This document shows positions 37,930 to 64,000 of a stretch of DNA of 64,000 nt, one piece after another; position 1 is the stretch's first letter, and each line of letters opens with the position of its first letter. The position numbers and the translations under genes were made by a program. This DNA is from a candidate division Kazan bacterium RIFCSPHIGHO2_01_FULL_44_14 (lineage in GTDB: Bacteria; Patescibacteriota; Kazan-3B-28): assembly GCA_001771185.1 (NCBI GenBank), contig METB01000001.1, positions 503,200-567,199 of the forward strand. Direction: 5' to 3'. A model generated the notes under the pieces. That model did not search any database, had not been told where the DNA came from, and saw only the letters and a list, made by a program, of their open reading frames with translations.

Positions 37930-38200
37930 TTAGGCGACGCTCAACCCGTCGGCACTTTGTCTTGGCAAAGTGCCCAAACCGCCCCGCCAGTCGTCGGGCT
38001 TGTTCGCCGAATAAAATTAGCTTTCTTCGCTTTCGGCAAACTCGCCTACGGCTCAAACAGTGCCTTCGCCTGTGCTAATTTTATTGGTTCAAGACAGCCC
38101 TCCTCCAATGGCGGACGAAGAGGAATAGAGAATCAACTTTGCTGGATGTGGATTTCAGGATCTAGATGCTGAAATAAATTCAGCATGACGGAGTTAGCGA
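37930..38200. repeat. Repeat cluster: family B mosaic segments plus the ttcaggatctagatgctgaaataaattcagcatgac hairpin motif
   Basis: ggcactttgtcttggcaaagtgcccaaaccgc is shared with 53610-53640; the hairpin motif is shared with 13062-13096. Confidence 0.65.
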
Positions 38201-46259: not shown

Positions 46260-46520
46260 ATGTCTTAATTTGTTTTCCCGAATCCGCCAGCTGGCGGACT
46301 GAGGGAATACACTTTTCTTATCCGTCATTCTGGCTCCCGCCTGCAACGATGTAGCATCTTCGGGTAGGTGACCAGAATCTTTTTCTTTCCAAGGGTCTAC
46401 GCCACCCTTGATGGGCGGTTACTTTCGTCTTGGCGAAAGTAACCAAAGCCGTGGCCCGCTCACCAATTCAGTTGCCACAAACCAAAATCACCCTTTCTGG
46501 ATTTAACCGCAAACTTGCTA
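46260..46520. repeat. Cluster of small palindromic repeats (ccgccagctggcgga palindrome, a cgtcattctggct hairpin element, a partial family A copy, and a family B tail)
   Basis: motifs are shared with 52885-52960, 62758-62810, 53445-53520 and 63950-64000. Confidence 0.65.
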
Positions 46521-46608
46521 CGCTCAAACATGCTTATCCAGACCGGGCGATTTTGCTACTGGCAATCTGAATTGCTTCGAAGGGCCAATAAAAAGAGGCA
46601 GAGAAAAA

Positions 46609-46627
46609 GACCCCCGGAGGGGGTCTT
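46609..46627 (-). terminator. Rho-independent terminator hairpin agacccccggagggggtct with a T-run on the minus strand
   Basis: immediately downstream of the minus-strand gene ending at 46647. Confidence 0.6.
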
Positions 46628-46646
46628 TAATGTATCGTTCCGCCAG

Positions 46647-47030
46647 TTATATCCGGGTGAGACTACAGGCGGTGTCCATGATCTCCCCGGTCGATACCAG
46701 AGTCCACTTACCTAACCATTGCCAGCCATCTTTGGCGGCGGGGCTGTCGGTTGGGGTAGGAGAATACTCGTAGAGGTACCCACCCTCGTCAAAAGACGTT
46801 GCGTCAAGGCACAGACGTCCGACTAGGGGAACTTCTTTGTATCCTTTTTTGAAATGGAGATGATCGTCCATGAGTATTCCCTTGATGGCACCAGACCCAT
46901 AACGATCCGTTACTGTTCCCTGGAAGTTACCCTCTTCGTCCGTTTCGATTTCCCCTTCAAACCTACTGCCACCTAGACAGTCGGCATAGATACCGGTAAC
47001 CCGATATTTCATTACAACTACCTCCTTCAA
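46647..47030 (-). CDS. hypothetical protein
   Basis: 127-aa ORF followed by a terminator. Confidence 0.45.
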   Translation of the reverse strand: MKEVVVMKYRVTGIYADCLGGSRFEGEIETDEEGNFQGTVTDRYGSGAIKGILMDDHLHFKKGYKEVPLVGRLCLDATSFDEGGYLYEYSPTPTDSPAAKDGWQWLGKWTLVSTGEIMDTACSLTRI

Positions 47031-47089
47031 AGTTCAATTGGACGCTTCAATGTACATCTAAAATCTTTGGTTGTCTAGCGACTATCTTT

Positions 47090-47230
47090 TTCGTCATTCC
47101 CGCGGAGGCGGGAATCTAGAAAGGATAATAAAAAATCTTTTTCTGTTCTTGGTGGACAGGATGGATCCCCGATGTCGGAGTGCTAATGCTTCCGACTCGA
47201 GGGTGACCATTCAACTGTATTCATGGTCAT
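47090..47230. repeat. cgtcattcccgcggaggcgggaatc hairpin element plus a flanking segment
   Basis: member of the gtcatYc-hairpin repeat family. Confidence 0.55.
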
Positions 47231-47281
47231 CTAAAACCCTCCGTCAGCTGACGGAGGGTTTTAGTAATAATCAAATTGAGA

Positions 47282-47977
47282 TTATCGCTTGTGGCCGACT
47301 TCTTTGCGAAGATCGTCCAAAGTTTCAGAGGCAGCTTTCTGTCCACCCAGCCCAAAGGCAAGACCGCCAGCCAACGCAATCATAAAGAAGAGCGCGGTAA
47401 TAAGCCGGTCGATGATGGAAGCAGCAATCCCCAACTGATTTAAGGCGACCAAAATAGTGAAGATGTAAATCGTCCACTTGGTCATTGCGCCCAAGAAATG
47501 AGCGGCCTTAACCCGAGCGGCACCAATAGTACCGCGAACCACGCCTGCGAAGAAGTGAGCGGAAAGCGTACCAATCAGCAGGATGGCGATAGCCACGAAG
47601 ACATTCGGGACATACATCAAGATCTGATTCAAGAAATCAGTTACCTTAGACAGACCCAAAATGTCGGAAGCGGCCAAGAAAGCAATCAACAAAATAGTCC
47701 AACGGACTAAGTTGCCGACTACTTCTGACACATCCAAATCAACGCCTGACTTATCAAAGAAGGTCTTAGCGCCGATTTTATTCAGAGCACCGTCAATTTT
47801 CAGTTGCTTAAGAATTTGAGTAACCAACCGATCCAATCCAGCTGCTACAATCCATCCTACAATCAAGATGATGGCTGCACCAACTAAAGCAGGCAGAAAC
47901 AGCAAAAAGCGTCCCCAAATATCCTGCAAAGGATTGAGAACTGCGTTACCCCAAACAGTAAAAAGATTATCCGTCAT
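47282..47977 (-). CDS. Membrane protein with conserved TM-helix repeats (MscS-associated family?)
   Basis: six TM helices and a repeated AxxxG-rich helix pattern; functional call is tentative. Confidence 0.45.
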   Translation of the reverse strand: MTDNLFTVWGNAVLNPLQDIWGRFLLFLPALVGAAIILIVGWIVAAGLDRLVTQILKQLKIDGALNKIGAKTFFDKSGVDLDVSEVVGNLVRWTILLIAFLAASDILGLSKVTDFLNQILMYVPNVFVAIAILLIGTLSAHFFAGVVRGTIGAARVKAAHFLGAMTKWTIYIFTILVALNQLGIAASIIDRLITALFFMIALAGGLAFGLGGQKAASETLDDLRKEVGHKR

Positions 47978-48201
47978 TACAATTCCCTTTGTTTAGTTTA
48001 TATATACGCGTATAGATAAATCCTATTTGTTTTTCGACCCTATTATCAAAGGACTGCCGTCGCTTTGATACTCGCATTATAACCAAAAAGTCCCCAAATC
48101 GCTAGTCCGCAAAGCTACCCAGCCCGCATGTTGTAGCACTATGGGCGGACGATTAGCGTTGCTGGCGGGCTAGTGAGCCATTTGGAGATGGATAAGAAAA
48201 A

Positions 48202-48232
48202 AGCCCTGATGTTTTAAATCAGGGCTTTTTTG
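48202..48232. terminator. Bidirectional terminator aagccctgat-gttttaa-atcagggctt flanked by A-runs and T-runs
   Basis: 10-bp stem. Confidence 0.6.
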
Positions 48233-48236
48233 GTGG

Positions 48237-48758
48237 TTAAACACTGGCGACCAAACATACCGACGACTGTAGGTTTTTGTTTTCATATTTGTCCAGAGTG
48301 AGGCACTTAGGTCCTTTTATGAGATCCTCATAGACAATCACGAAACTACGATTTTTTGCTGTGGTGATTTTGACAGTATCTCCCAGGTGAATAATTACAA
48401 GGCTGTCTTCTCCGTTGCTTGGGTCGCTCGTCGACACAAGGCACTCGGGAACGCCCTTGCCCGCCACGACCCTCCCTGGTGTACCCATTCCACCTGCGTG
48501 GATGCGCACTAAGATGCGCTTGTCTTGTCTAGGCCCGGGATTCTGAAGAATCCAGTATGTTTTCGGACCAGTCGAAAAAGATGTTGGGCAGGCGCCGTAG
48601 ACGATTGATCCATCCCTGAATGTGTCAGGGGGGTTGTTTCGGCAGAGTTTCACTCTGCTACTACCGTTGCCAAGCCGTATAACTTGTCCTAGATCTTTGT
48701 CGGCGGAGATGGCAATCCCTCTGTTCAAGACACCAAGAATAAAAGTGAAACACAACAT
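48237..48758 (-). CDS. hypothetical secreted protein
   Basis: N-terminal signal peptide MLCFTFILGVLNRGIAISA. Confidence 0.45.
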   Translation of the reverse strand: MLCFTFILGVLNRGIAISADKDLGQVIRLGNGSSRVKLCRNNPPDTFRDGSIVYGACPTSFSTGPKTYWILQNPGPRQDKRILVRIHAGGMGTPGRVVAGKGVPECLVSTSDPSNGEDSLVIIHLGDTVKITTAKNRSFVIVYEDLIKGPKCLTLDKYENKNLQSSVCLVASV

Positions 48759-49078
48759 GATATTCCCCCTTGTTCTGCTAAGGGCTTAAATTTATCAGGT
48801 GTCAAACTCCTGATAGGCCCCGGACAGTACATCTGTCAAAGAACGCCCCTATCCTACCTGATTTACGGGTGGTTGTCAAGTAATAATGGGCTCTGGGAGC
48901 CACTTATATCTGGTGCCCTAGGAGAGACTTCCACCGTCGTTCAATTCTGCTGTACAGCAGAATATCACTTATGAGCGGACCTTGCTTCTCGTCCTTTCAT
49001 ATCTACAATAACAAAACAGAGCCAAATGGCTCAGTTTCGTTATGGTGGGCCAGCCCGCATTGCTACGCAAAGCGTTGC

Positions 49079-49163
49079 TGGTGGGCGCGAGAGGACTCGA
49101 ACCTCCACGGATTGCTCCACTAGCTCCTAAAGCTAGCGTGTATACCAATTTCACCACGCGCCC
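49079..49163 (-). tRNA. tRNA-Leu (anticodon UAG) with a long variable arm
   Basis: cloverleaf; acceptor gggcgcg; anticodon loop tttagga; ~13-nt variable arm; encoded CCA. Confidence 0.8.
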
Positions 49164-49169
49164 TCGTCG

Positions 49170-49335
49170 CAACGTCATTCCCGCACCCGTCCGCAACGAT
49201 TCGCCAGCCCGTAGTGGATACAACATTTCTGGCGGGCGTAGCGATTCGGGCAGGAAGGCGGGAATCCAGAAAGAAAAATAAAAAACTTTTTCCTGTTTCT
49301 GTCTGGATCCCGGCCTTCGCCGGGATGACAAGATA
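49170..49335. repeat. Family A repeat (49186..49267, near-identical to 22231..22312) flanked by gtcattcccgc...gcgggaatcc and gtcatcccggcgaaggccgggatcc hairpin elements, directly upstream of tRNA-Leu
   Basis: a short family A relative (ccagcccgcattgctacgcaaagcgttgctggtggg, 49049..49084) also lies on the other side of the tRNA. Confidence 0.75.
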
Positions 49336-49344
49336 AAATTATTT

Positions 49345-50085
49345 TCAAACAGTCACTAAATCTTTCAACTGTCCAAAGATACTGTCGCCAATTCCTGGCA
49401 CATCCATCAAACCATCAATACTCTTAAATGGTCCTGAAAGCAAGCGATAGTCAATAATTCGTTGAGCCAGTACCGGTCCAATCCCGGGTAATAATTCCAA
49501 CTCGCTACTTTCAGCTGAGTTGATATTTATTTTAGTACCACTTTCTGAAGTGATATTGGTGGCTGGAACATTGGAGTTGCTGGGTGGTACATAACTTTCG
49601 CCGATTTTAGGAATATAAATTTTACCATGGTTGGTCAGTTCTTGGGCGCGATTAATTGAATGGGCAATTGCGTCTAAATCGGCTCGACGACTGAATCCGC
49701 CGGCCGAGTTGATGGCGTCTTCGACAATTTTTCCAGCGTCCAACCAATAGACGCCAGGTTTAATTACGGCTCCAGCAATATCAACTACCAGTTTGCCGTT
49801 GGTGGGGTTGGCGGTTTCTGAATTGGCAATCGACTCTATCTCGCCAGCAGTTTTAATATCTGGTCCTGCTAAAGTACTTCTGGGTGGCGTTAGCATTAAA
49901 TACACACCCAAACTCAATATCAACAGTAAACCGCCGAAAATGTAGTAGCGGTATTTTTCAAAGAAATCTGATTCTGGGGGATCAGGCGTGAGTGTAAAAG
50001 GTGAGAGCGGTGTCTCCATAGCGTTTATTGTTCCAAATCCGAAGATTTGGATTCTGGGGCGGTTCTTTATCACTACTGTGTTCAA
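49345..50085 (-). CDS. comEA: ComEA-like DNA-binding protein (helix-hairpin-helix)
   Basis: C-terminal tandem HhH (LELLPGIGPVLAQRII...LMDVPGIGDSIFGQL); N-terminal TM helix. The annotated start overlaps rsmD, so the true start is probably downstream. Confidence 0.7.
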   Translation of the reverse strand: MNTVVIKNRPRIQIFGFGTINAMETPLSPFTLTPDPPESDFFEKYRYYIFGGLLLILSLGVYLMLTPPRSTLAGPDIKTAGEIESIANSETANPTNGKLVVDIAGAVIKPGVYWLDAGKIVEDAINSAGGFSRRADLDAIAHSINRAQELTNHGKIYIPKIGESYVPPSNSNVPATNITSESGTKININSAESSELELLPGIGPVLAQRIIDYRLLSGPFKSIDGLMDVPGIGDSIFGQLKDLVTV

Positions 50086-50506
50086 TAACCAAAATCCCGT
50101 TTTCGGTTAACAAATTTTCCCAGCCAGTAATATCTAGGATATCTTCGTACCAGGGGTCGGCAAAGACAATATTGTAGGGGGACTGGTTCGCAGTCAAAAA
50201 ATCTTCCACCAACATCATCCGTACGGTTCCGCGGTCAGTCATCCCTAATTTATTTAAATTTTGTTTAATCAGGTTGTAATGATTACGATCTTTTTCAACA
50301 AACAATACTTGGGTTGCTCCACGGCTAATAGCTTCAATCCCAATCGCACCACTGCCAGCAAACAGTTCTAAAAAGTTAGCGCCAACTACTTTATCGTTTA
50401 ATACATCAAACACGGCTTTGCGGACCAGTTCCATGGCTGGTCGTAAAGTTGGCAGGGTATTAATTAAATTACCTTTAAATTTTCCAGCAGTAATTCTTAG
50501 TTGCAT
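49982..50506 (-). CDS. rsmD: 16S rRNA (guanine966-N2)-methyltransferase RsmD
   Basis: SAM-binding LELFAGSGAIGIEAISRGA and the DPPY-type motif DPWY. Confidence 0.75.
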   Translation of the reverse strand: MQLRITAGKFKGNLINTLPTLRPAMELVRKAVFDVLNDKVVGANFLELFAGSGAIGIEAISRGATQVLFVEKDRNHYNLIKQNLNKLGMTDRGTVRMMLVEDFLTANQSPYNIVFADPWYEDILDITGWENLLTENGILVIEHSSDKEPPQNPNLRIWNNKRYGDTALTFYTHA

Positions 50507-50627
50507 CCAATTAAATTCTAAGCGCTAAATCCGAAATTCTAAACAAATCCTAAATCTTAATGTTCCAAATAATTTGTGATTTTGGGTTTGGAATTTGTTT
50601 AGATTTTAGTGTTTCGGATTTCGTATT

Positions 50628-52661
50628 TTATTCACTATGAGCCGTAATGGCTTCTAGATTAATTCGTTTAGCCAACTCGGGATATTTTTCTAAAGTGATA
50701 TCCTCGTCCAATATAGCATTAGCCGCGTCTTGAGCCCGTTTGATGGCTCGGGTATCAGTCCAGTTGGCTAACCGATAATTGAGAAATCCGGATTGAGCAT
50801 GGCCAAAGATTGCTCCCGGACCGCGCAACTGCAAATCAAGTTCGGCCAATTTAAATCCGTCGAGGGTTTTGGCGAATAGCCCTAACCGCTCCGTAATTTC
50901 TGGGGTATGGTCGGTTGGAATCACAAAACAATATGATTGCAGTTCACTTCGGCCCACTCGACCGCGCAGTTGATGAAGTTGGCTCATCCCAAATCGTTCG
51001 GCGCCTTCAATTAACATGACGGTCGCATTGGGAATATCAATTCCGACCTCAATCACGGTGGTAGCCACTAAAATATTTAGTTTGCCGGTTTTAAAGTCCG
51101 TCATTACATCGGTTTTTTGGTCAGAAGTTAACCGGCCGTGCAACAAGCCAACTTTGGCATGCGGGAAAATCCTTTGAATATTTTTATATTCGGCTTCGGC
51201 CGATTTAGCGGAAAGTTTGGTACTGATTTCAATCAGAGGAGTAATCACGAATACTTGATGGCCATTTTCGATCTCGTTTAGCATCCGTTTGTAGGCCACC
51301 TGACGGTGGTTGGATTCTAGAGCTTGGGTGATAATTGGTTTTCGATTTAGGGGTTTGTGCGGAATGACCGAAATGTCTAAATCGCCGAATACAGTTAAAG
51401 CGAGTGAGCGGGGAATCGGAGTGGCAGTTAGTGAAATAAAATGGGGAGTTGTTCCATTGTTCATTTTGTTTTTCAGGGCTTCGCGCTGTTTAACTCCAAA
51501 CCGGTGTTGTTCATCAACGATTACCAAGTTTAAATTATTAAAATGCATACTGGTCTGGATTAACGCATGGGTACCAATAAAAACGCTGGCATTGTCTGGA
51601 CCAGCTTGATAGGCCTGGGTACGCAGGGCGCAATTCACTCCGAATTCTTTTAATAAGGGAGCAATTGAAAAGTAATGCTGACGGGCCAACACTTCAGTTG
51701 GCACCATTAAGGCCGATTGAAAGTTTTGTTTGGCGGCTAGGGTCATTAAGATGGCAACTAAAATTGTTTTGCCCGAGCCAACATCGCCTTGCAGCAAACG
51801 GTTGGTGGGTTTGCCGTCGGCTAAATCCTGCAAGATTTCCCAGAGAGCGCGTTTTTGGCCATTGGTTAATTGATAAGGCAATTTGGCCAAAATTTGTTTG
51901 ATCAATTCAATATCGGTGGCAATTGGTTCGGCTGATGCTTGTTTCAAAAATCTTTTGACACTCTGTACGGCCAATTGGGTGAGTAGTAGTTCATCAAATC
52001 CCAATCGATCTTTGGCGATTTGCAATATTTCCAAGTTTGCCGGAAAGTGAATCCCTTCTAGGGCAATGGAGAGATCGGTCAATTGATATTGTTGCCGAAT
52101 AATTGTTGGCAGGTAGTCGGGGAGTTGGCGGATAGTTGGAAGCAGGGTTTTGATTAGTCGGCGAAAGATTTTGGTAGTGATTCCTAAACTTTCTGGATAA
52201 ACTGGAACGATTCGACCGCTATGTAGGGGAGTGCGTTCTTCGCCGGCGGTTTGAGTGGGCTCTAAACTAGGACTCATTAAAATTAGTCCTTTAGCATTTC
52301 GTTCAACTTTGCCGGTCAAATAATATTCAGTTCCTTTTTTGAGGGTAGTTTTAAGGTAGGGTTGGTTAAACCAAACGACAGGGATAGAGCCGGTTTCATC
52401 GCTCAAAATCCCTTGGGTTAGCATCATCCGCCGGCGAGGAGTACGAAAGGCGGAGAAGGTGGTTAAATGTGCTCTAACCGTGGATTTGGAGCCGTCCGCC
52501 TGAAGTTCAGCGATGGGGGTTAGGTGAGTGAGGTCTTCCCAGGCCCGGGGGAGGTGGTAGAGCAGGTCAGAAACGGTTTCTAGGCCCAAAAACCCCAGTT
52601 TTTGGGCAATGGCCGGACCGATACCGGGGATTTTGGTTAGGGATGAGGTAGGGGAGAGCAT
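50628..52661 (-). CDS. recG: ATP-dependent DNA helicase RecG
   Basis: wedge domain plus SF2 helicase motifs (GDVGSGKT, DEQHRFG, QLRGRVGR). Confidence 0.9.
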   Translation of the reverse strand: MLSPTSSLTKIPGIGPAIAQKLGFLGLETVSDLLYHLPRAWEDLTHLTPIAELQADGSKSTVRAHLTTFSAFRTPRRRMMLTQGILSDETGSIPVVWFNQPYLKTTLKKGTEYYLTGKVERNAKGLILMSPSLEPTQTAGEERTPLHSGRIVPVYPESLGITTKIFRRLIKTLLPTIRQLPDYLPTIIRQQYQLTDLSIALEGIHFPANLEILQIAKDRLGFDELLLTQLAVQSVKRFLKQASAEPIATDIELIKQILAKLPYQLTNGQKRALWEILQDLADGKPTNRLLQGDVGSGKTILVAILMTLAAKQNFQSALMVPTEVLARQHYFSIAPLLKEFGVNCALRTQAYQAGPDNASVFIGTHALIQTSMHFNNLNLVIVDEQHRFGVKQREALKNKMNNGTTPHFISLTATPIPRSLALTVFGDLDISVIPHKPLNRKPIITQALESNHRQVAYKRMLNEIENGHQVFVITPLIEISTKLSAKSAEAEYKNIQRIFPHAKVGLLHGRLTSDQKTDVMTDFKTGKLNILVATTVIEVGIDIPNATVMLIEGAERFGMSQLHQLRGRVGRSELQSYCFVIPTDHTPEITERLGLFAKTLDGFKLAELDLQLRGPGAIFGHAQSGFLNYRLANWTDTRAIKRAQDAANAILDEDITLEKYPELAKRINLEAITAHSE

Positions 52662-54112
52662 AGGGGCAATTAAAAATTACAAATTAAAAATGACAAATGG
52701 GGGATAGGGATAAGTTAAAGGTGAAAAGTCCTCCTCCGTTCTGCTGTACAGCAGAACTACGGAAGGATCTGCGATGAAAAGTTAGGGAAGGGATAATGAC
52801 AAATTAAAAATTAAAAATGGAGGATAAGGGGAGAGTGTATCTTCAATTTAACCAATTTATCCAATCTGTACCAATCTAACCAAAGCATTGTCATCCCGAG
52901 CGTAGTCGAGGGATCTAGTGGCTAGATTTCTTCATCCCGCCAGCTGGCGGAAGTCGGGATGACGCCCATATCTGGTGAGTGTCCAATAATTGGCTCTGGG
53001 AGCGATAAAACTCTTGACTGACCCTGATAAATAGAGTATACTTAAAGGATAACAGAAGAGCGGTCCCTCGGGGGACTCGGGAACAGCGAGGGACAGCCAA
53101 AGGAGGGTGGTTATAGCAAATTAACAAACCACCGAAGAATGCAAAAATCGCAAAAAATCATCGATTTTTCCGGAATGCAGTTTGATGCCAATCGGCGTCC
53201 CAGCTGGCGTTTGCGTCAGAAATCTAGAACCATGCGGTCTCGTAATCATGTTGCTCGTAATGTTCGTACCATTGTTCAAAATATATTCGGAATGTAAGTT
53301 GGCTCTGACTCGTTCAAGCGTGTGGGTTAAAGATCGGTTTGAAAGTTTAGTGGTAGTGATGGAATCATTTACTGCGGGATTAGGACTGTAGTTTTTTTAT
53401 TTTTTCCCGTCATCCTGAACTTGTTTCAGGATCTATTTTTCTTATCCGTCATTCTGGCTTGCGTAGCCCTTCGTAGCTCGGAGAGCGTAGTAGGGTCCAG
53501 AATCTTTTTTATTTTCTTTTTCGAGCGTAGAATGACGCTCGACCCATTGGCACTTTTTGCTTGTCCAATATGCTTTTGCAACGCCTGTGTCGCGTTGCAT
53601 CGACAGCCACTTTGTCTTGGCAAAGTGGCTCAAACCGCTGGCCAACGTCCTCGGACTTATTCACTGACTAAATCTCTGGGTGTTCCCGCCGAACTCCTCC
53701 TCATTTCATTCGTCGTCAAACATGCGGCTTCACCCACCGAGATTTAGTTCAGTTCAGAACAGTCCTCGTCCTAGGGCCAATTAAGAAGAAAACAGAAGAC
53801 ACAGTTTGTTCGATGGGTCTTGGATGAAATTGGCCCTTCAGTGAAGGGTTGTTCTGAATTGAGCTAAATCCTCGTTACAGGGAGATGTTTGAGTCCTGCT
53901 GTCCAGCAGGACGAGTTTCGACCATTAGCAGAAAGAGGATTTAGCCAATGAATAGACCCGGAACTGTCCGGGCCACGGCTTCCCGCCTGCAACGCTATGC
54001 CAGCCCGTAGTAGATACAACGTTTCTGGTGGGAGTAGGCATTGCGGGCAGGTTGTTACTTTCCTTTGGGACGGAAAGTAACGGCGGGTTGAGCGTCGCCT
54101 TGCGCTCAAAAA
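52662..54112. repeat. 1.45-kb non-coding, repeat-dense region (family A copy 53982..54051, family B mosaic 53530..53830, and gtcatYc hairpins at 52885..52960 and 53410..53540)
   Basis: no ORF with protein-like composition; multiple segments match repeats elsewhere in the window. Confidence 0.7.
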
Positions 54113-55303
54113 CTATTTCAACTGCAAAAATTTTCTCTTCCCAACTTGAATGATGGTGCCTTTTTTGGGAATCACTTCAAAGTTAGCATCTGAAATTACC
54201 TGGTGGTCAACTTTGACACCGCGTTGTTCAATTAATCGTTTAGCATCGGATTTAGAACTGGCCAAGTTGCTCTCGACTAACAGGTCAGCCAATCCCCTAG
54301 CTTTTTTTAAATTATACGATTCCATTTCGTCTGGCTCACCTTTGGTTCTAAAGACCCGAACGAAGTTTTCTTCGGCTTTTTTAGCTAACATCTCACCGTG
54401 ATACATCGAAGCGATAGCAAAGGCCAGTCGCATTTTAATATCGCGAGGGTTGGTCTTGGTAGATTTCAGCAACTTTTTGATTGCACTTAATTCATTGGCC
54501 GAGATATTGGTTGCCATTTCAAAATATGTGGCGATGCATGAATCCGGCAAAGACATAATTTTACCGTACTGGCTATTAGCATCTTCAGTAATCCCGATAT
54601 CATTGCCCAAACTCTGGCTCATTTTTTGTTTGCCGTCTAAACCAACTAATAATGGGACGGCAATAATTGCTTGCGGGGCCTGGCCGAAATCAACTTGCAA
54701 ATCTCGACCACGCATTTCATTAAAGATTTGGTCAGTACCAATTACTGTGGCATCACTTTCAATCGCGACAGAATCGTAGCCCTGCAACATCGGATAGATT
54801 GGTTCATGGAAACCAATTTCAAGTCCTGCCTTCATTCGTTTTTGGAACATGTCTCGCTCAATCATTTGAGCATAAGTAAAATGTCCCATTAGTCGGATTA
54901 AATCTTCGGCCGACATTTTGTCTAACCATTCACCGTTGTAGCGGATTTCGGTCTTTTTCGGGTCTAAAATCGTTAAGGCCTGGCGAATGTAATGTTCGCT
55001 CATTTTTTTAACTTCTCGGGCGTCGCGTAAAGTGCGGGTTTTTTCTTTGCCAGTCGGGTCACCGAATCTGGCGGTAAAATCACCAATCACATAGGCCACA
55101 GTGTGGCCGAGTTCCTGGAACTCGCGGAGTTTGTGATAGACAACCGAGTAACCCAAATGTAAATCGGGTGTGGTTGGGTCCACGCCATGTTTAATCCGCA
55201 GTTTCCGACCAGAGCCAAGTTTGGCTCGAAGTTCTTTCTCGCCGATGATTTTATCAACTCGACGAGTCAGCAGTTCTTTTAATTGAGATTGACTGGGTTT
55301 CAT
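54113..55303 (-). CDS. tyrS: Tyrosyl-tRNA synthetase
   Basis: HIGH-region variant TPDLHLGY; KMSKS variant KMSQS; C-terminal S4-like domain. Confidence 0.85.
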   Translation of the reverse strand: MKPSQSQLKELLTRRVDKIIGEKELRAKLGSGRKLRIKHGVDPTTPDLHLGYSVVYHKLREFQELGHTVAYVIGDFTARFGDPTGKEKTRTLRDAREVKKMSEHYIRQALTILDPKKTEIRYNGEWLDKMSAEDLIRLMGHFTYAQMIERDMFQKRMKAGLEIGFHEPIYPMLQGYDSVAIESDATVIGTDQIFNEMRGRDLQVDFGQAPQAIIAVPLLVGLDGKQKMSQSLGNDIGITEDANSQYGKIMSLPDSCIATYFEMATNISANELSAIKKLLKSTKTNPRDIKMRLAFAIASMYHGEMLAKKAEENFVRVFRTKGEPDEMESYNLKKARGLADLLVESNLASSKSDAKRLIEQRGVKVDHQVISDANFEVIPKKGTIIQVGKRKFLQLK

Positions 55304-55315
55304 GAATTTATCGTA

Positions 55316-55801
55316 TCAATTGCGAGGCGGGAAAATATATTCATCAATCTTGGTATCAGTATTGTTGATATAGTTTTCGATGGTGTGGCTAATCCTGGTA
55401 CCTAAATTTAATTGCAATGCTTCTTCGGGGGTGAACCAGGCCAATTCAGTGATTTCTGTAAGATCGGCTTGAGTATCTGAATTGGTTGCTTCACAGAGGA
55501 AGTGAAAAAATACTAATTGGGTTGCTCGATGAAAGTCAGGGTCATCGACAAGATTACCCATATTGATACATCTAATCACTTTAGTGTCGAGGCCGGTTTC
55601 TTCTTTCACTTCGCGTACGGCAGCATCGGCTAACGATTCGCGATAGTCAACATGGCCACCAGGGATAAGCCAGGTGTTATTCCATTTAGGTGAGCGGATA
55701 AGCAAAACCTTACCTTCGGAATTTACCACGAGGCCAGAAGCGACTACTTCAACTTGTCCTGGAAGCCGTTCATTCACCCTGATATTGTAGCAGAACGCCA
55801 A
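55316..55801 (-). CDS. NUDIX hydrolase
   Basis: Nudix box GGHVDYRESLADAAVREVKEETGL. Confidence 0.8.
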   Translation of the reverse strand: MAFCYNIRVNERLPGQVEVVASGLVVNSEGKVLLIRSPKWNNTWLIPGGHVDYRESLADAAVREVKEETGLDTKVIRCINMGNLVDDPDFHRATQLVFFHFLCEATNSDTQADLTEITELAWFTPEEALQLNLGTRISHTIENYINNTDTKIDEYIFPPRN

Positions 55802-55837
55802 ATTGATCGGATGATATTGTAGCGGTAGATTATTCCT

Positions 55838-56030
55838 TATCCGTCATCCTCGGGCTTGCGTCAGCCCTCCGTAGCTCGGAGAGCGAAGGATGGGAGCCCG
55901 GGGATCCCCGCCCGAATGTACCATTCAGTACGGGCGGGCAGACCAAAAAAGATTTTTTTGGCTTCGTCAGCTGACGAATGACCGATATAGGGTCGTATCC
56001 CCATCTGGGGCGGACCCCCCTTCGCTCAAA
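55838..56030. repeat. gtcatcctcgggc... hairpin repeat element (related to 22336..22432)
   Basis: shared gtcatcctcggg, gagcccgggga and aaaaagattttt segments. Confidence 0.6.
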
Positions 56031-56157
56031 AGCTACGGATGGGCAGGGTGCTATAATGTAAGCCGTTACTGGTTTAATATCCAAATTCCAAATTTCAAAC
56101 TCCAAAGGAGATGTCCCTATTTGGTTATTGTGATTTGATGATTGATTATTACGAGCA

Positions 56158-58698: not shown

Positions 58699-58883
58699 TG
58701 GATAAGAATATACTTAAATGTCATTGCGAGGAGTCCCGGTAAACCGGGACGACGTGGCAATCTATTTTTCTTATCCGTCATTCTAAGTTTGTCGAAGAAT
58801 CTAATCCCGGCAGGCCGGGATGTTATATTCCTTAACTTTTAACTTACATCAGACACCGGATGTCTGATGTAATTTTATTATGC

Positions 58884-58908
58884 AAAAGGCGGCCGAAAGG
58901 CCGCCTTT
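58884..58908. terminator. Bidirectional terminator aaaggcggcc-gaaa-ggccgccttt
   Basis: 10-bp GC stem with a GNRA loop. Confidence 0.6.
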
Positions 58909-58958
58909 GAAGTTGACACAAAAAGTGCAGATAACTAATCCTAGTTTTTATTTTAAAT

Positions 58959-59624
58959 CTAATTTTCTGACGGGGGACTATTATATGCCTGCATAATCCC
59001 AGTGTGAAAATCGACTTGGCGGTTAGGTGGGATTTTAAAAACGCGGATGAGGGTTTCAGTTTGAGTCCATTGGAGCAAACGCTCTGGCGGAGTTGGTATT
59101 GGATAACAATCGGTTGGCACATCTTGCAGTTCAAAACAATGCTGAGTGATGACTAAGATGTTATTCGGAGCCGGAATCCAAAACCCACTTGGGTAATGAG
59201 ACGACCGACCAAATGTCATCGGAAAGTACGTGGTTCCGTCTCTGAATACTCGCATTAACCTTAGAATCACTTGCCCCAATGTTTCTTGCTCGGAAAATAC
59301 GACCGAGTTCCATGGCTGGATTCCACCCTGGATACAAAATATCGATTGGCCCCAGAGTCGCAATCTAATCGCCTGATGCCCCGCAGCGGCTTTGTCTGGG
59401 TCGAACTTTGATGGATGCGACAGATAAGTGTTGTTATATGAAGCAAACAATATTGGGCATCCACTTGTTACTACCACCTTTGTGTCATCTTCCAAGATTG
59501 AGATGGGCTCGTTAAAATCCTGCTCTTGTCGATGTTGGGCGACGGCGTTTGTTCGATGCTGGATGTTCTTAAAAAACGGGAACTCTTTTAACAACGATTT
59601 CAAAGTACTCTCGTCCTTGCTCAT
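58959..59624 (-). CDS. hypothetical protein
   Basis: 221-aa ORF with no recognisable motifs. Confidence 0.45.
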   Translation of the reverse strand: MSKDESTLKSLLKEFPFFKNIQHRTNAVAQHRQEQDFNEPISILEDDTKVVVTSGCPILFASYNNTYLSHPSKFDPDKAAAGHQAIRLRLWGQSIFCIQGGIQPWNSVVFSEQETLGQVILRLMRVFRDGTTYFPMTFGRSSHYPSGFWIPAPNNILVITQHCFELQDVPTDCYPIPTPPERLLQWTQTETLIRVFKIPPNRQVDFHTGIMQAYNSPPSEN

Positions 59625-59853
59625 GTTAGGAATCTCCCTTCAATGACACTCCGAACTTCGGAGGAGCTTGTCATCTAGTCAGTTTGGTAAGGTGCTGACA
59701 ACCTGGATTCTTTAGCATACACCCGTCTTGGGGCATCCCGTAATCAATAAGGTTGCTATATCTGGTGGGGCATGGTAAGGTGTGTGCACGCAATCCTGCT
59801 GGACGGCAGGATTGGGAATAGTTGTTATATTAGGTTAAGTAGGGAGATTTCAT

Positions 59854-60039
59854 ATGAACGACGAAATGAATACGACTCCGGCTGACGATCAAGCTACTCC
59901 GGCCGTGTCGGCTGATGCCGAGATGGAGGCCGAGGTGACGGCAGAGGAAGCTGAAGCCGAGGCCGAGACCCCAGTGGCCGAGGCAGTTGAGGCCGAAGAG
60001 GTTTCGGAAGAAGGTTCCGACGAAGTAGCAACAGCTTAA
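59854..60039 (+). CDS. hypothetical highly acidic small protein (E/A-rich)
   Basis: RBS ggagat before the ATG; hairpin downstream at 60048..60084. Confidence 0.35.
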   Translation: MNDEMNTTPADDQATPAVSADAEMEAEVTAEEAEAEAETPVAEAVEAEEVSEEGSDEVATA

Positions 60040-60152
60040 GTAGTTATCTCTCGAGAGGGACCCAGTGGGTTCCCTCTCGACGACCGTTGGCTAAGCCAAG
60101 TTTCGCTTTGCTCAACCAAGCGGTCTGCTCTCCCTCCCTTTTGGGACGAAGA

Positions 60153-60190
60153 GAAAAAACCGTTCTGCCATATGGCAGAACGGTTTTTTT
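60153..60190. terminator. Bidirectional terminator aaaaaaccgttctgccatatggcagaacggttttttt
   Basis: 11-bp stem flanked by A6 and T7. Confidence 0.65.
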
Positions 60191-60340
60191 GGTTGGACTT
60201 GACGGTGGGCAAATTCAACCATATCTTGGGTTAGCGGACAGAGGGTTCCTGTTCGTTGTACCTCCTATCCCTCGGCGCTAACAAGCGTCGAGGGTGTTTT
60301 TAATGTGCTACAATAATTCGTCGAGTTGTAATTTACCAAT

Positions 60341-60616
60341 TTGCAGGAGGAAATGGGCATGAATTTTGCTCAAGTTGAGATGCAGACCAAGTTGGCCAAG
60401 ACCCCTGAAGAACTTTTGGCTTTGCTGACGGAAGTGACGGCTCCGATTTCCTGGTTGGGTTTCAAACAGTCGGGCGAAGCATCGAAAGTGCTTAAACTGA
60501 TCGAGAATCGCAATCGTCAAGTCGCCGAAGCGAGAACACAGGCAATCGAGATTGCCAGGCAAGAGGTACAGAACAAGATTGGTCACATTCGAAAGTTCCC
60601 GAATGCTTACAGCTAA
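60341..60616 (+). CDS. hypothetical protein
   Basis: 91-aa ORF preceded by caggaggaaatgg. Confidence 0.45.
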   Translation: MQEEMGMNFAQVEMQTKLAKTPEELLALLTEVTAPISWLGFKQSGEASKVLKLIENRNRQVAEARTQAIEIARQEVQNKIGHIRKFPNAYS

Positions 60617-60780
60617 ATGGACGAGGGGACTTTTCTGTCACGTTGGGGTCGTGATATAGTGAGACCGTAGTTTGGTTTATCTCCCTTTCCCTGCATTTTG
60701 CACCTACATCCACGCCCCGTTGACCTCGCCGTAATCTTCTTATGGCGGGGTCTTCTTCTGGCTCTGGAAGCGGATAATGC

Positions 60781-60808
60781 TTGACAGAGGCGGGGATAGG
60801 TGTATAAT
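60781..60808 (+). promoter_or_regulatory. Consensus sigma70 promoter (TTGACA - 16 bp - TATAAT)
   Basis: perfect -35 and -10 hexamers read directly from the sequence. Confidence 0.6.
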
Positions 60809-60814
60809 GGGGGT

Positions 60815-61215
60815 ACTTTATTGTTCCTTAAGGAGGCAAAGGTGATGAGAAGAATACGAACGTGTGAGTCGGCAACCGCCGGCACACAAAATGGTTACAG
60901 CATCAGGACCTAACGATCGGTCCGCGACGGGTAGCAACTAACTAACGGCCACACCGAGTATCGGATGCAAACTTTATCGCGCCACTCGGTCGGATCATGA
61001 TAGGCTACCCACAGTTTCTGATTTTTCACATTAGTTTCTGATTTTTCACATTTTTCGACTTTCGTTCTTCGTACAATTCTTTTCTTTTGGAGGTCACGTA
61101 CATCATGCGTAGAATCTTCAAGTTTCCTGTCTAAAGCGGGATGCCACCCGCGAAGAAAATGGCAAATTGGTTTGATTGAACATGACCCGCTGGCAATCGT
61201 CAGCGGGTTTTTTCT
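60815..61215 (+). ncRNA. Candidate ~400-nt non-coding RNA or long regulatory leader
   Basis: spans from just after the consensus promoter to the intrinsic terminator acccgctg-gcaatcgtc-agcgggttttttc at 61185..61215; contains a 22-codon ORF (60845..60913) with RBS aaggagg and a 2 x 20-bp tandem repeat agtttctgatttttcacatt (61003..61042). Confidence 0.4.
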
Positions 61216-61229
61216 TGTATGATTAATTT

Positions 61230-61550
61230 ATGAATCCAAAACTTTTATGGATAGTGGGAGGAGTTGTAATTGTTGGTGTGGGAATTTGGTTTGTGGTTAG
61301 GACCAATCGGTCGGAAGCGGAGAATCCGCCAAAAGACGATATTGCAACCGAGCAGGATGCATCGCCGTCAACTAATTCGACGCCAACCTCATCTAACAAT
61401 GCTCAACCGACTAACACGGCTAAATCCACGACTACTTATTTGCCAAGTCAAACGCCGTGGGCGCAAGGGCCAAGTGACCAAACCATTCCGTCATCGAACG
61501 GAGGAACCATTCCACAACAAACTCCATGGTCGCAAGGGCCAAGTGATTAA
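61230..61550 (+). CDS. hypothetical membrane-anchored low-complexity protein with QTPW(A/S)QGPSD repeats
   Basis: N-terminal TM helix; S/T/P/Q-rich tail. Confidence 0.45.
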   Translation: MNPKLLWIVGGVVIVGVGIWFVVRTNRSEAENPPKDDIATEQDASPSTNSTPTSSNNAQPTNTAKSTTTYLPSQTPWAQGPSDQTIPSSNGGTIPQQTPWSQGPSD

Positions 61551-61676
61551 TAGTTCCAGGGTTGGTTATTGTGGTTGGACTTTTTCAGGTGAAGGAGTTA
61601 GTCATGGGATAGAGGTAAAATTAGGACGATGCAAGATAAATCTTGGGGATTGACAATATAGCAATTTTGTTATATT

Positions 61677-61982
61677 ATGAAAATAGAGCTGAAAATCATA
61701 GAATACGTTGCGGACTTTTTGAATGACTTGCCAGCGGAGTTGTACGCTAGGTGTGTGAAAAAGTTAAAACTTTTTGAAGAATATGGTTTTTTCCTGACGA
61801 ATACGGATCTTAAGAAGATTAATAAAAATCTCTGGGAGTTGCGAACGAAAAATACTCGGATTTTAATGGGCAAAACGGGAGATACCATCTGGGCAGTACA
61901 CGCTTTTTATAAAAAGACCAATAAAACTCCCAAGAAGGAAATAGATTTAGCTGGGAAACGTTTAGAGAAGTTAAAAAAATGA
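61677..61982 (+). CDS. Type II toxin, Gp49-like / HigB-RelE superfamily
   Basis: WELR...ILMGKTGDTIWAVHAFYKKTNKTPKKEI resembles phage Gp49-like killer proteins (PF05973 pattern); the stop overlaps the next gene's start. Confidence 0.65.
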   Translation: MKIELKIIEYVADFLNDLPAELYARCVKKLKLFEEYGFFLTNTDLKKINKNLWELRTKNTRILMGKTGDTIWAVHAFYKKTNKTPKKEIDLAGKRLEKLKK

Positions 61983-62278
61983 GCAAGGAAAAATTTTACA
62001 CGGTTAGTGAACTCGAAAAGAAAGGGATGAAAAATCCTAAGTTTCGACGGGCCTATGAGGCATTAGAGCCGGAGTATCAAATTGCTAGAGCGGTGATAGC
62101 CGCTCGTCTTAAAAAGGGAATGACGCAGGGAGAACTAGCTCGGAAAGCGGGGACTAAGCAACCGGTTATTGCGCGGTTGGAAAATATGAAGAGTGCCCCT
62201 TCCTCTAGGAGCATGGGGCGGATTGCCAATGCACTAGATCTCCGGTGGAATTTGAAGTTAGTACCGAAGACGAGATAA
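61979..62278 (+). CDS. HTH (XRE-family) antitoxin
   Basis: HTH KGMTQGELARKAGTKQPVIARLE; 4-nt overlap with the toxin gene. Confidence 0.65.
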   Translation: MSKEKFYTVSELEKKGMKNPKFRRAYEALEPEYQIARAVIAARLKKGMTQGELARKAGTKQPVIARLENMKSAPSSRSMGRIANALDLRWNLKLVPKTR

Positions 62279-62374
62279 TTTTGCAGTCATGACAATACGA
62301 TGCAATGTCTTATTGGACTGGTTTGTGATATGATATATATGTCATATGGTGCGAATGGACGTTGGAAAAGAGAT

Positions 62375-62641
62375 ATGAATAAAACATTTATCACTAAAAT
62401 CAGACAAGATAAGGAATTCCAACGACTTTATGATATCGAGAAAAAGAAGCTTGATATTGCCATTGCTTTGGCGAAAGCGCGCCAGAAAAAAGGGATGACG
62501 CAGGGACAGGTTGCCAAGAAGGCAGGGGTAAGTTGGGAGACAGTGTCTCGGATTGAAAATGGGAGAGTAAATTCTAGCGTGGAGGTATTGAGTCGGTTGT
62601 TTGCCGCGGTAGGAAAACGGTTGGATTTTGAGATTTCTTGA
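62375..62641 (+). CDS. second HTH (XRE-family) DNA-binding protein
   Basis: HTH KGMTQGQVAKKAGVSWETVSRIE; start taken at the internal ATG (the ORF extends to 62300). Confidence 0.55.
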   Translation: MNKTFITKIRQDKEFQRLYDIEKKKLDIAIALAKARQKKGMTQGQVAKKAGVSWETVSRIENGRVNSSVEVLSRLFAAVGKRLDFEIS

Positions 62642-62875
62642 ATCCGCCTACCAATTCACCCCAAAGGGGCCCCGTTGGGGCTAAATCACTATTTCACTAA
62701 ATCACTTTTTCACCCTTTAGGACAAGCCAAACAGTATTGTCACCCTGAACTGACCGGCCTACGGTCATCCCGAGTCCGCCAGCTGGCGGATCGAGGGATC
62801 TATCTTGTTTCAGGGTCTATTTGTGTATAGGATGGGGGCTGGGGGATATATGAGTAACCCCGAGGAGAAACAAAG

Positions 62876-63784
62876 ATGGAATTATTATGGAGTTTGGGCT
62901 GGTTGGTGTTGGTAGTTATATTGGTATCAATCAAGCAGATTAACCAATATCAAAAAGGGGTGAAGTTTACGCTGGGGAGATACTCGGGAATTATGCAACC
63001 GGGGTGGCGGTTAATTTTTCCAATTTTCCAATCGTATCGGAAAATAGACATTCGAGTAAAAGCGGTAGATGTGCCAACTCAAGAGGCCATCACTAAAGAT
63101 AATGTCTCGGTGAGTGTGAATGCAGTAATTTATTATCGGATTAAACAAGCCGACAAAGCGGTGTTGGAAGTCGAGAATTTTTTCTATGCGATGTCGCAAT
63201 TGGCGCAAACCACCATGCGGAATGCAGTTGGCCAAGTCAGTTTGGATGATTTATTGTCGGAACGCGATCGAGTGTCGGATCAAATCAGAAATATTGTGGA
63301 GAAGGCCTCTGACCCATGGGGAATCGAAGTAATGAATGTCGAGTTGAAAGACATCACTTTGCCAGAGGAAATGAAACGAGTAATTGGCAAACAAGCCGAA
63401 GCCGAGCGCGAGAAGCGAGCGGTAATTATTAAAGCCGAAGGTGAAGTGGCGGCATCGGAAAATATGGCGAAAGCCGCTCGGATGTTATCGGGTGCTGATG
63501 GGGCTTTGCATCTACGGACATTGCAATCGATTAATGATATTAGTTCAGATCAGTCCAATACCATCGTGTTTATGGTGCCAATGGAAGCATTGAGGGCGTT
63601 GGAGGGGTTGGCTAAAAAAATGAATATACCTACTCTTGATGGAGGGACGAAGGGTGTTCCTCCCTCAACGGATAGTGGGCAAAAGCCCAGTTCCGGCAGG
63701 CCGGAACCAAGCTATCCTGCTCCCACCTCCACTTTAGGGACAGCAGACAAGTCGAAAGAGCCGGCGCAAGAGCCACTAGTTTGA
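62876..63784 (+). CDS. SPFH/band-7 (stomatin/prohibitin-like) membrane protein
   Basis: N-terminal TM helix; SPFH core (YQKGVKFTLGRYSGIMQPGWRLIFP...); coiled-coil region. Confidence 0.8.
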   Translation: MELLWSLGWLVLVVILVSIKQINQYQKGVKFTLGRYSGIMQPGWRLIFPIFQSYRKIDIRVKAVDVPTQEAITKDNVSVSVNAVIYYRIKQADKAVLEVENFFYAMSQLAQTTMRNAVGQVSLDDLLSERDRVSDQIRNIVEKASDPWGIEVMNVELKDITLPEEMKRVIGKQAEAEREKRAVIIKAEGEVAASENMAKAARMLSGADGALHLRTLQSINDISSDQSNTIVFMVPMEALRALEGLAKKMNIPTLDGGTKGVPPSTDSGQKPSSGRPEPSYPAPTSTLGTADKSKEPAQEPLV

Positions 63785-63884
63785 TCTTATTGCCTGAGCT
63801 TGTCGAAGGCCTACCTATTCGTCATCCCGGACCTGATCCGGGATCCATTCTCCAAGCGCCTGCGCGGCGCTTGACCCGCGGGAA

Positions 63885-64000
63885 CCAAACGCAAGCTGGC
63901 GTTTGATCCAGCGTCTCTTTTTGCTTGTCCAAAAAGAGACATAAAAAGGACACCCAATTCACAAATTTCTAGCCAAAATAGAAAATCACCCTTTCTGGAC
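63885..64000. repeat. Family B repeat copy (near-identical to 15914..15990) running to the window end
   Basis: ccaaacgcaagctggcgtttgatccagcgtctctttttgcttgtccaaaaagagaca. Confidence 0.7.

Follow-up and report, generated by a model that had tools for sequence, protein, structure and literature searches.

A second superfamily of repetitive extragenic palindromes (REPs), in which one end of the palindrome carries an unpaired CGTC (or TGTC/CCTC) tag, has been defined and comprises the families CGTC-1 and CGTC-2 (Di Nocera 2013, PMC3733652). These REPs are multi-copy and mainly intergenic, with an 8-9 bp stem that starts with A-T/T-A, a loop of 4-5 nt and a short unpaired tail with the consensus CCA, and dimers with the tags outside (HH) predominate (PMC3733652). 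Members include dRS3 in Neisseria and RPE-4/6 in Rickettsia; they were listed in five phyla (Proteobacteria, Chlorobi, Bacteroidetes, Spirochaetes and Thermotogae), and tyrosine transposase genes were never flanked by CGTC units (PMC3733652). Here we analysed 64,000 nt from a candidate division Kazan bacterium of the candidate phyla radiation (CPR; contig METB01000001.1, positions 503,200 to 567,199), which we refer to as the window, and studied the hairpins with a GTCATYC tag that recur in its intergenic spacers.

A nuclease is known for one motif of this kind. SsnA binds and cuts the 28-nt oriented NTS (CGTCATTCCCGCGMAVGCGGGAATCYRG), of which the SRM is the generalised form (Chenal 2025, PMC11893778). 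SsnA is a small single-domain GIY-YIG nuclease (cd10448) of ~95-100 aa that acts on single-stranded DNA (ssDNA) only and on the tagged strand only; this was shown on the motif in Neisseria and Wolbachia, and the enzyme was inactive on double-stranded DNA and RNA and did not bind RNA (PMC11893778). SsnA cleaves a few nucleotides 5' of the tag and needs the 3 nt preceding the palindrome to do so, for binding the C right after the palindrome matters most, and in split-NTS assays a stem re-formed from two molecules was still cut (PMC11893778). The ssn genes are usually bracketed by two motif units with the tags outward, and of the genomes with >200 motifs 81% encode Ssn, whereas 19% of SRM-rich genomes are without ssn (PMC11893778). 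In N. meningitidis the motif/nuclease pair reduces transformation by motif-bearing DNA (PMC11893778).

We find that the repeated GTCAT hairpins are a genuine family of an already described kind, the CGTC-tagged REP, and we are highly confident that they belong with Neisseria dRS3/NTS, Rickettsia RPE-4/6 and the SRM. The best explanation overall is probably that they are CGTC REPs recognised by an Ssn-type nuclease, and by analogy with Neisseria we lean slightly towards this nuclease being encoded in the same Kazan genome. The first-pass annotation had regarded the hairpins as unlike classic REPs and bacterial interspersed mosaic elements (BIMEs). This contrast has to be given up, as a constant unpaired tag with a variable stem defines both REP superfamilies (PMC3733652). 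Its suggestion of a nuclease that acts in trans and reads the tag fits well with what has been demonstrated for SsnA on the same motif in Neisseria and Wolbachia (PMC11893778), and by analogy may apply here. The repeat density is less unusual for a reduced genome than it had supposed, since Rickettsia and Wolbachia have the same family. What is new is modest: CGTC-tagged units are present at high density in a CPR (Kazan) genome, one unit is nearly identical to the Neisseria NTS, hairpins are extensively nested in loops and one insertion lies in frame in lepA.

Census and anatomy of the units

The motif GTCATYC occurs 35 times in the window compared to 15.1 +/- 3.9 expected copies, and none of 100 shuffles reached 35. 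For a hairpin census blind to the tag, we collected all perfect hairpins (stem >=7, span <=120) and tabulated the 3 bases before the stem together with the first 2 stem bases. The commonest 5-mer was GTC|AT with 13 hairpins; 30 Markov simulations yielded 0.87 on average and never more than 3, which makes for a ~15-fold excess. All other 5-mers were found in 6 hairpins or fewer. A looser scan and inspection added to the census and gave ~25 hairpin units in the 64-kb window. The density is higher between 46 kb and the window end as had been noted, with ~17 of the ~25 units lying within 46-64 kb, and further clusters are located at 13.0-14.3 kb, 22.2-22.4 kb and 38.2 kb. The hairpins that had been listed as examples all exist, but their coordinates were wrong by 0-18 nt; the G of GTCAT lies at 13045, 22335, 55843, 47093, 49174, 46324, 53448, 58777, 52890, 62764 and 63821. 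The window has a G+C content of 45.7% and its + strand is G-rich throughout. A 93-kb metagenome contig from the Rifle aquifer (JGI 3300025323 Ga0209542_10000518) contains the identical sequence, and the assemblies that we compared for the presence or absence of units are 100% identical across the window, except for L006, a contig of a sister strain.

A canonical unit consists of the tag YGTC, a stem arm of AT and 6 variable bp, a loop of 4-5 nt, the returning arm of 6 bp and AT, and the tail C(C/T)A, e.g. CGTC ATTCCCGC ggag GCGGGAAT CTA at 47092. Our alignment comprised 16 units: 8 came from the window, 2 from the sister strain and 6 from the surroundings of unrelated ssn genes. G2, T3, C4, A5, T6 and C8 as well as G22, A24 and T25 were invariant, and C26, the first base 3' of the stem, was kept in 15 of the 16. 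The stem pairs A5-T25 and T6-A24 were invariant in all 16 units, 99.2% of the stem cells were paired and five of the eight pairs were altered on both sides. The observed covariation was matched by none of 500 shuffles, and sliding the partner lowered the pairing to 19-54%. The invariant tag, the covarying stem and the census thus confirm a real family, and not unrelated hairpins that share a hexamer.

The tags are variable at their first base: among ~23 units we observed CGTC in ~13, TGTC in ~6 and GGTC or AGTC in 3 cases. Canonical units have stems of 8 bp and ATTCTGG/ATCCTGG units stems of 7 bp, and several stem sub-families coexist within the 64 kb (ATCCTGAA, ATGCTGAA, ATTCTGG, ATTCCCGC, ATCCCGGN and ATCCCGAG). 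The 3' tails are CCA, CTA, CTT or CGT, and in 11 of the 13 units of the unbiased census the first tail base is C. Eight canonical units have a loop of 4-5 nt (13044, 13097, 14251, 38190, 47092, 49330, 53408 and 63820). Folding of the units as DNA yielded the hairpins as expected (z-scores of -2.6 to -13). As ssDNA, every unit forms a hairpin of ~8 bp with the YGTC tag unpaired on its 5' side and a tail that begins with C on its 3' side.

Compared to the Neisseria NTS consensus, the unit at 47092-47119 shows a single mismatch (27/28 identical). The strict SRM pattern has two matches in the window (49304-49330 and 63820-63847) compared to 0.19 expected. Units outside this pattern fail on inner-stem composition or loop length, and because the pattern is too narrow for the stem sub-families found here, we used a structural descriptor instead. 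The positions that are kept, GTC upstream and C downstream, are the cleavage and binding determinants of SsnA reported by Chenal et al. Since the split NTS was still cut, the loop is dispensable, which makes the long-loop and nested variants described below plausible substrates.

Dimers and nesting

Units occur singly or as inverted pairs. There are five clear tags-outward dimers (13044-13097, 14179-14251, 22334-22433, 49173-49330 and 52889-52964) and two degenerate or atypical tags-outward pairs (47092-47208 and 55842-55983), and no tags-inward dimer was found among the ~25 window units. The spacer of paired units frequently holds an A/T mini-palindrome. Nesting with other palindromes goes both ways, as a dimer can form the loop of a palindrome and a different repeat can fill the loop of a unit.

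The dimer at 13044-13097 combines a + unit (TGTC ATCCTGAA cttga TTCAGGAT TTA) with a - unit (TGTC ATGCTGAA tttat TTCAGCAT CTA). It is itself the loop of a larger palindrome of 18-20 bp (13024-13117) between convergent murJ and a 112-aa open reading frame (ORF), and its DNA fold reaches -39.9 kcal/mol (z = -13). Convergent recO and a xerC/D-like gene enclose a single canonical unit on the - strand at 38163-38190 (CGTC ATGCTGAA tttat TTCAGCAT CTA), which shares 97% identity with 13061-13096. Within lepA, the dimer at 14179-14251 consists of a + unit (CGTC ATTCTGG, 24 nt, CCAGAAT CTT) and a - unit (CGTC ATCCTGG attgc CCAGGAT CGT). The dimer at 22334-22433 pairs an imperfect + unit (CGTC ATCCTCGGGGC..GCCCGGGGAA) across an A/T mini-palindrome with a - unit (AGTC ATCCTCGGG cttga CCCGGGGAT TTA).

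The canonical + unit CGTCATTCCCGCGGAGGCGGGAATCTAG at 47092-47119 (fold z = -3.8) has a degenerate inverted partner at ~47162-47208. Its stem ATTCCCGC/GCGGGAAT returns in a composite + unit at 49173-49268, in which the loop is not empty as in 47092 but is extended to 73 nt and filled by a repeat that we call D1 (49185-49254). The tags-outward partner of this composite is a canonical - unit at 49304-49330 (TGTC ATCCCGGC gaag GCCGGGAT CCA), one of the two that fit the SRM pattern. The composite (49173-49276) is duplicated at 22218-22321 (+) as a 93% copy with D1 in its loop, a degenerate unit whose tag has decayed to CGTT.

A doubly nested element is located at 62738-62819 (+). Its outer unit (TGTC ACCCTGAA..TTCAGGGT CTA) holds in its loop an inner unit at 62763-62802 (GGTC ATCCCGAG..TCGAGGGAT CTA), whose own loop is the 14-bp palindrome CCGCCAGCTGGCGG (62776-62789). 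A decayed + unit of the same sub-family (D13), TCCCGAAT CCGCCAGCTGGCGG ACTGAGGGAAT at 46272-46309, has lost its tag and also has the palindrome as loop. Three exact copies of CCGCCAGCTGGCGG (46284, 52937 and 62776) are found in the window where 0 are expected. This bears out the three copies noticed earlier, of which those placed at 46277 and 52931 really start at 46284 and 52937. As the palindrome is the loop of one sub-family, it does not count as a separate observation.

The dimer at 52889-52964 consists of a + unit (TGTC ATCCCGAGCgtagtCGAGGGAT CTA) and a - unit (CGTC ATCCCG..CCGCCAGCTGG..CGGGAT). A long-loop + unit at 46323-46381 (CGTC ATTCTGG, 38 nt, CCAGAAT CTT) has a CCCGCCTGCAACG-type palindrome in its loop. 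The canonical + unit at 53408-53435 (CGTC ATCCTGAA cttgt TTCAGGAT CTA), of which an identical unit is found at L006:578, is connected to a long-loop + unit at 53447-53506 (CGTC ATTCTGG, 39 nt, CCAGAAT CTT) by TTTTCTTATC (D15), a recurrent linker between consecutive units. The loop of another long-loop + unit at 55842-55908 (CGTC ATCCTCGGGC..GCCCGGGGAT CCC) is 87% identical to the 53447 loop, and an atypical tagged CAGCTG palindrome (GGTC ATTCGTCAGCTGACGAAG) follows on the - strand at 55962-55983. A cluster of three elements occupies 58719-58830 (+): TGTC ATTGC, 29 nt, GCAAT CTA, then a linker, CGTC ATTCT..AGAAT CTA and an untagged ATCCCGGCAGGCCGGGAT. Finally, the canonical + unit at 63820-63847 (CGTC ATCCCGGA cctga TCCGGGAT CCA) is the second that fits the published SRM pattern.

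Genomic context and turnover

Units are found between convergent genes (13044, 38163, 46323 and 58719) and between co-directional genes (22334, 47092, 49173, 52889-53506 and 62738), and a single cluster lies between divergent genes (55842-55983). Of the singletons, nine are on the + strand, which is G-rich and presumed to be the lagging-strand template, compared to one on the - strand; a link between this bias and the lagging-strand template is suggestive only. A comEA-like gene adjoins one dimer. The unannotated ORFs beside the repeat clusters have no match in Pfam, NCBIfam or PHROGs.

The dimer in lepA is in frame and lengthens a loop of the GTPase domain by ~24 residues (RHSGKGAEGGRDQNLIRSWAIQDDE). 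In a related population, whose LepA is 88% identical, a different AT-rich palindromic insert is present at the same codon (L030:2880-2990), and the murJ-lepA spacer of this relative is without the 13044 dimer. Both differences indicate that the elements turn over on a short evolutionary scale. In the sister strain (L006) identical units recur at other loci. We found no CGTC units in the 10 kb upstream of the window, which are prophage-like, nor in the 10 kb downstream. The upstream sequence (L010:1-9745) resembles a prophage or island and carries small and large terminase-like genes, a ParB-N6/N4 methyltransferase and DUF4238.

Search for the nuclease

Ssn relatives were retrieved with an Ssn-like consensus. 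This query returned a very large family of ~95-100-aa GIY-YIG proteins (PF01541) with two Tyr and a Glu spaced as Y6/Y17/E64 of SsnA. Forty Ssn-family proteins then served as tblastn queries against all collected loci. The best match for Ssn (E = 0.03) fell in a gene that resembles a phage terminase and was discarded on the basis of Pfam. If the ~25 units in 64 kb are typical of the whole genome, which measures at least 0.7 Mb (its largest contig has 699,981 bp), the total would be >200 units, and this would place it in the class of genomes of which most encode Ssn.

Other collected loci display the arrangement of units and nuclease gene directly. On L031, ~20 CGTC/TGTC ATTCCCNN-4nt-NNGGGAAT CCA units surround an ssn-family gene. 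On L032 and L033 one unit is located 15 nt upstream and an inverted unit 27 nt downstream of an ssn-family gene with the tags outward, and the block as a whole seems to interrupt a DUF1016 gene. The Kazan dimers are arranged like this block, minus the gene. On L032 (2402-3439), L033 and L035, metagenome and NCBI contigs unrelated to the Kazan genome, the unit, the ssn gene (a GIY-YIG protein of 99 aa) and the inverted unit lie between a 202-aa DUF1016_N fragment and a 52-aa ORF; the block seems to have inserted into a DUF1016 gene that neighbours a type III restriction-like helicase. The lineage-specific linker+tag pattern TTTTCTTATCCGTCATTCT gave 5 chance-level matches in unrelated genomes in a genome contig collection that does not include the Kazan genome, and 12 matches in metagenome contigs, only one of which is from this organism.

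Several points weigh against recognition by an Ssn-type nuclease and against mobility. No GIY-YIG/Ssn gene was found in the window with a GIY..YIG regular expression in six frames, nor ssn with tblastn and Pfam tables in ~100 kb of non-redundant sequence of this organism, and because no cognate ssn was found in these ~100 kb, the link to the nuclease here is one of analogy. Only 2 of the ~25 units fit the strict SRM pattern, and the ATCCTGAA, ATGCTGAA and ATTCTGG stems fall outside it. At least nine units have loops of 11-73 nt that hold other palindromes, compared to 4-5 nt in the published families. The aligned units were chosen by their GTCAT tag, so that the invariance of the tag is partly by construction; the C8-G22 pair, the tail C26 and the covariation were not selected for. 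Around units and dimers there are no consistent target-site duplications, a result that is uninformative rather than supportive. Ssn is not known to carry out transposition in any organism.

Proposed mechanism

If the analogy holds, an Ssn-type GIY-YIG nuclease would bind the hairpin together with the 3' C and cleave the ssDNA a few nt to the 5' side of the tag. The tags-outward dimers may then be gene-less miniatures of the SRM-ssn-SRM block that would spread by a single-strand mechanism leaving no target duplication. In the window, copies have landed preferentially in the loops of other hairpins, resulting in nested mosaics, and once in frame in lepA. Ssn-dependent cutting of motif-bearing ssDNA, e.g. 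in natural transformation, would be a likely consequence in this organism. A stronger version, which we put forward as speculation that is more likely wrong than right, is that the tags-outward CGTC dimers are currently active non-autonomous elements driven in trans by an Ssn-type nuclease, favouring hairpin loops and biased to the lagging-strand template. The proposed preference for single-stranded hairpin loops would explain the hairpin-in-hairpin nesting. Active dimers would constitute a REPIN-like system based on a different enzyme fold and would provide the first evidence on how CGTC REPs spread, a question that has been open since 2013.

Alternative explanations

The alternative that survives best is that the units are orphan relics, CGTC REPs that were inherited or amplified in the past, in a genome that has lost Ssn, and that are now immobile and survive as neutral DNA, recombination substrates or targets of e.g. 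IS110-family recombinases. We regard this as unlikely, although it would account for the lack of ssn in the ~100 kb searched as well as for the decayed units with lost tags or mismatched stems (22218, 46272 and 47162-47208). The absence of ssn from 19% of SRM-rich genomes (PMC11893778) points the same way, as does the proposal of Di Nocera et al. (PMC3733652) that CGTC families may be heading for extinction. The genome of the sister strain (L006) has a breakpoint inside the mosaic at 53817, beside an IS110-family transposase gene, which would also suit recombination at relics. However, many units are perfect, with compensatory stem changes and a strictly conserved tag and tail, which argues for continuing selection or recent copying. 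The turnover between relatives at 88% protein identity also does not fit with immobile relics, and the ssn search covered ~15% of the genome or less.

Considerably less probable is that the hairpins work mainly in RNA, terminating transcription or stabilising mRNAs as 3' structures, and that the tag is incidental. Most units are near 3' ends and have convergent or co-directional genes as neighbours, T-rich runs follow a few of them (53412-53432, 46378 and 53503), and many REPs are transcribed according to Di Nocera et al. (PMC3733652). Most units, however, have no T-run or face the wrong way, and a terminator scan caught only 53412-53432 and 58804-58821. The cluster between divergent genes (55842-55983) and the dimer within lepA are not where such structures would be expected, and the orientation of the units is independent of the flanking genes: singletons are + in nine of ten cases, whereas the genes at 46-56 kb are mostly on the - strand. 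Neither the invariant unpaired GTC nor the 3' C is needed for an RNA terminator. Rfam detected only the 16S rRNA and tRNAs at gathering score in the window, with nothing credible at E<=1 in 46-64 kb. As the repeats have no Rfam family and SsnA is inactive on RNA and does not bind it, the structured RNA motifs that had been considered in the first-pass annotation find no backing. RNA-level roles for individual copies are possible.

We consider it very improbable that the units are classic GTAG-type REPs or REPINs mobilised by a RAYT, an IS200/IS605-like Y1 transposase. The architecture of tagged hairpins, inverted dimers and mosaics is similar, but the tag is YGTC and not GTAG, no Y1_Tnp (PF01797) is present in the gene tables of this organism, and CGTC units never flanked a tyrosine transposase gene in the published survey (PMC3733652). 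The tag together with the absence of Y1 transposases excludes this explanation. The IS200/IS605-type transposase that had been suggested as a partner was looked for, and none is encoded in the DNA examined or tied to CGTC REPs in the literature. A chance pairing of a common hexamer with unrelated hairpins can be dismissed: although ~100 of the 126 GTCAT pentamers in the window sit in genes without an adjoining hairpin, the hairpin census and the stem covariation refute it, and units share the tail C and recur in identical form at unlinked loci.

Co-resident repeat families

CCGCCAGCTGGCGG, TTCTGCTGTACAGCAGAA, D1 and AT-rich elements are separate families that reside together with the CGTC units in a mosaic resembling the neisserial intergenic mosaic elements (NIMEs). 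The untagged palindrome TTCTGCTGTACAGCAGAA at 48945-48962 has an exact second copy at 52739-52756, and variants occur at 29453-29471 and 53894-53911. Its recurrence had been noted before and is exact for 48945 and 52739, but the copy placed at 29457 is a variant, TTCTGCTGTTACAGCAGAA, with one extra loop base and a terminator-like look. Contigs of two other assemblies (L004 and L005) end exactly at this palindrome, at position 48962. At the 48945-48962 module, a third scaffold (L002:13700-13910) shows another palindrome (ATCACAAG..CTTGTGAT) together with a run of N, which suggests population heterogeneity or an assembly collapse at this module.

D1 is a 70-nt element, represented on the + strand at 53981-54050 (CCCGCCTGCAACG..CCAGCCCGTAGT..CTGGYGGG..GCGGGCAGG). 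Other copies are located at 22230 and 49185, both in loops of CGTC units, and at 36666. The last copy (36666-36735) lies in frame within a PduO-type cob(I)alamin adenosyltransferase gene (36358-36981, - strand; 188 residues match a 170-position Pfam profile) and is a second repeat that is tolerated within coding sequence. Folding of the D1 consensus gave no convincing single hairpin, and we kept D1 as a co-resident repeat.

AT-rich TTTGGGATTTAGAATTTGGAATTTGTTTAG-type repeats were found upstream of recO and recG at 37043-37165 and 50513-50632 (72% identical over 123 nt); the element in frame in lepA of the 88%-identical relative is of this kind. A 104-nt repeat at 15914-16017 and 63884-63986 (90% identical) contains AAGCTGG- and GTCTCTTTTTG..CAAAAAGAGAC palindromes, and parts of it recur at 32525-32580, 38013-38082 and 53533-53568, which indicates larger mosaic modules beyond the CGTC units.

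The sister-strain contig (L006:1-4563) is 99.5% identical to the window up to 53817 and then continues with other genes (HIT, an IS110-family transposase of PF02371, S21, YqeY and YbeY). All differences fall into the last 170 nt, inside the repeat module, and thus the rearrangement appears to pass through the mosaic. In Neisseria, dRS3 is used by IS110-type recombinases (PivNM), and the L006 breakpoint may be a parallel to this.

Other features of the window

A locus resembling a diversity-generating retroelement is present at 256-3015, with a target gene (256-1158) containing a variable repeat (1013-1145), a template repeat (1479-1611) that is 88% identical to it, a bAvd gene (~1611-1862, -) and a reverse transcriptase gene (2002-3015, +). 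The 16S rRNA gene (29911-31492) is not followed by a 23S gene within the window, and tRNA-Ala (-) and tRNA-Ile (+) lie on opposite strands ~3 kb downstream of it (34161-34843); the rRNA operon therefore appears to be unlinked. Three tRNA-Met genes are located within 1.3 kb (7118+, 7362- and 8349-). A 33-nt partial duplicate of a tRNA-Met half (8440-8472, 91% identical to 8389-8421) may be the remnant of an integration site. In the middle of a 1.45-kb 'non-coding' mosaic we also found a very basic ORF of ~52 aa (53140-53298, +; MQKSQKIIDFSGMQFDANRRPSWRLRQKSRTMRSRNHVARNVRTIVQNIFGM) with a Shine-Dalgarno-like AAAGGAGG upstream, which is conserved in L006.

Implications and comparison with known systems

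The units of the window extend the CGTC-REP/Ssn-motif family to a lineage of the CPR, and the near-identity of one unit to the Neisseria NTS suggests a protein-DNA recognition module that is conserved between only remotely related bacteria. Members of the CPR are believed to rely on DNA uptake, and the motif/nuclease pair could matter for gene flow in their populations. The nested architecture and the in-frame insertion in lepA provide natural data on landing sites. On the practical side, such repeat mosaics break metagenome assemblies, as seen in the contig ends at 48962, and yield spurious ORFs.

With the CGTC REP superfamily the units share the tag, the A-T/T-A start of the stem, the HH dimers and the mostly intergenic placement. 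The in-frame intragenic dimer, for which 20-30 aa were published, and the lack of an adjacent transposase gene also agree. Differences are the CPR (Kazan) host, the palindrome-filled long loops (24-73 nt) in roughly half of the units and the coexistence of several stem sub-families. Compared to the NTS/SRM-SsnA pair, the dimers are arranged like the units on either side of ssn, and clustering in mosaic intergenic regions is common to both, whereas most of the Kazan units fall outside the strict SRM pattern. As with Rickettsia RPE-4/RPE-6, CGTC-type units are found in frame in essential genes of a small genome (cf. lepA), but here there is one intragenic CGTC dimer and one intragenic D1, and the host is not an intracellular alphaproteobacterium. 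NIMEs and the BIMEs of E. coli likewise interleave tagged hairpins with other short repeats in mosaics of several hundred bp. In the Kazan genome the partners are CAGCTG-centred palindromes, CTGTACAG palindromes, D1 and AT-rich palindromes, and BIMEs are built from GTAG REPs with RAYT. The likeness to REPIN/RAYT lies in the inverted pair of tagged hairpins as the probable mobile unit, in the recognition of ssDNA and in the lack of target duplications. The tag is a different one, and the candidate enzyme is a GIY-YIG nuclease of unproven mobilising ability, not an HUH Y1 transposase.

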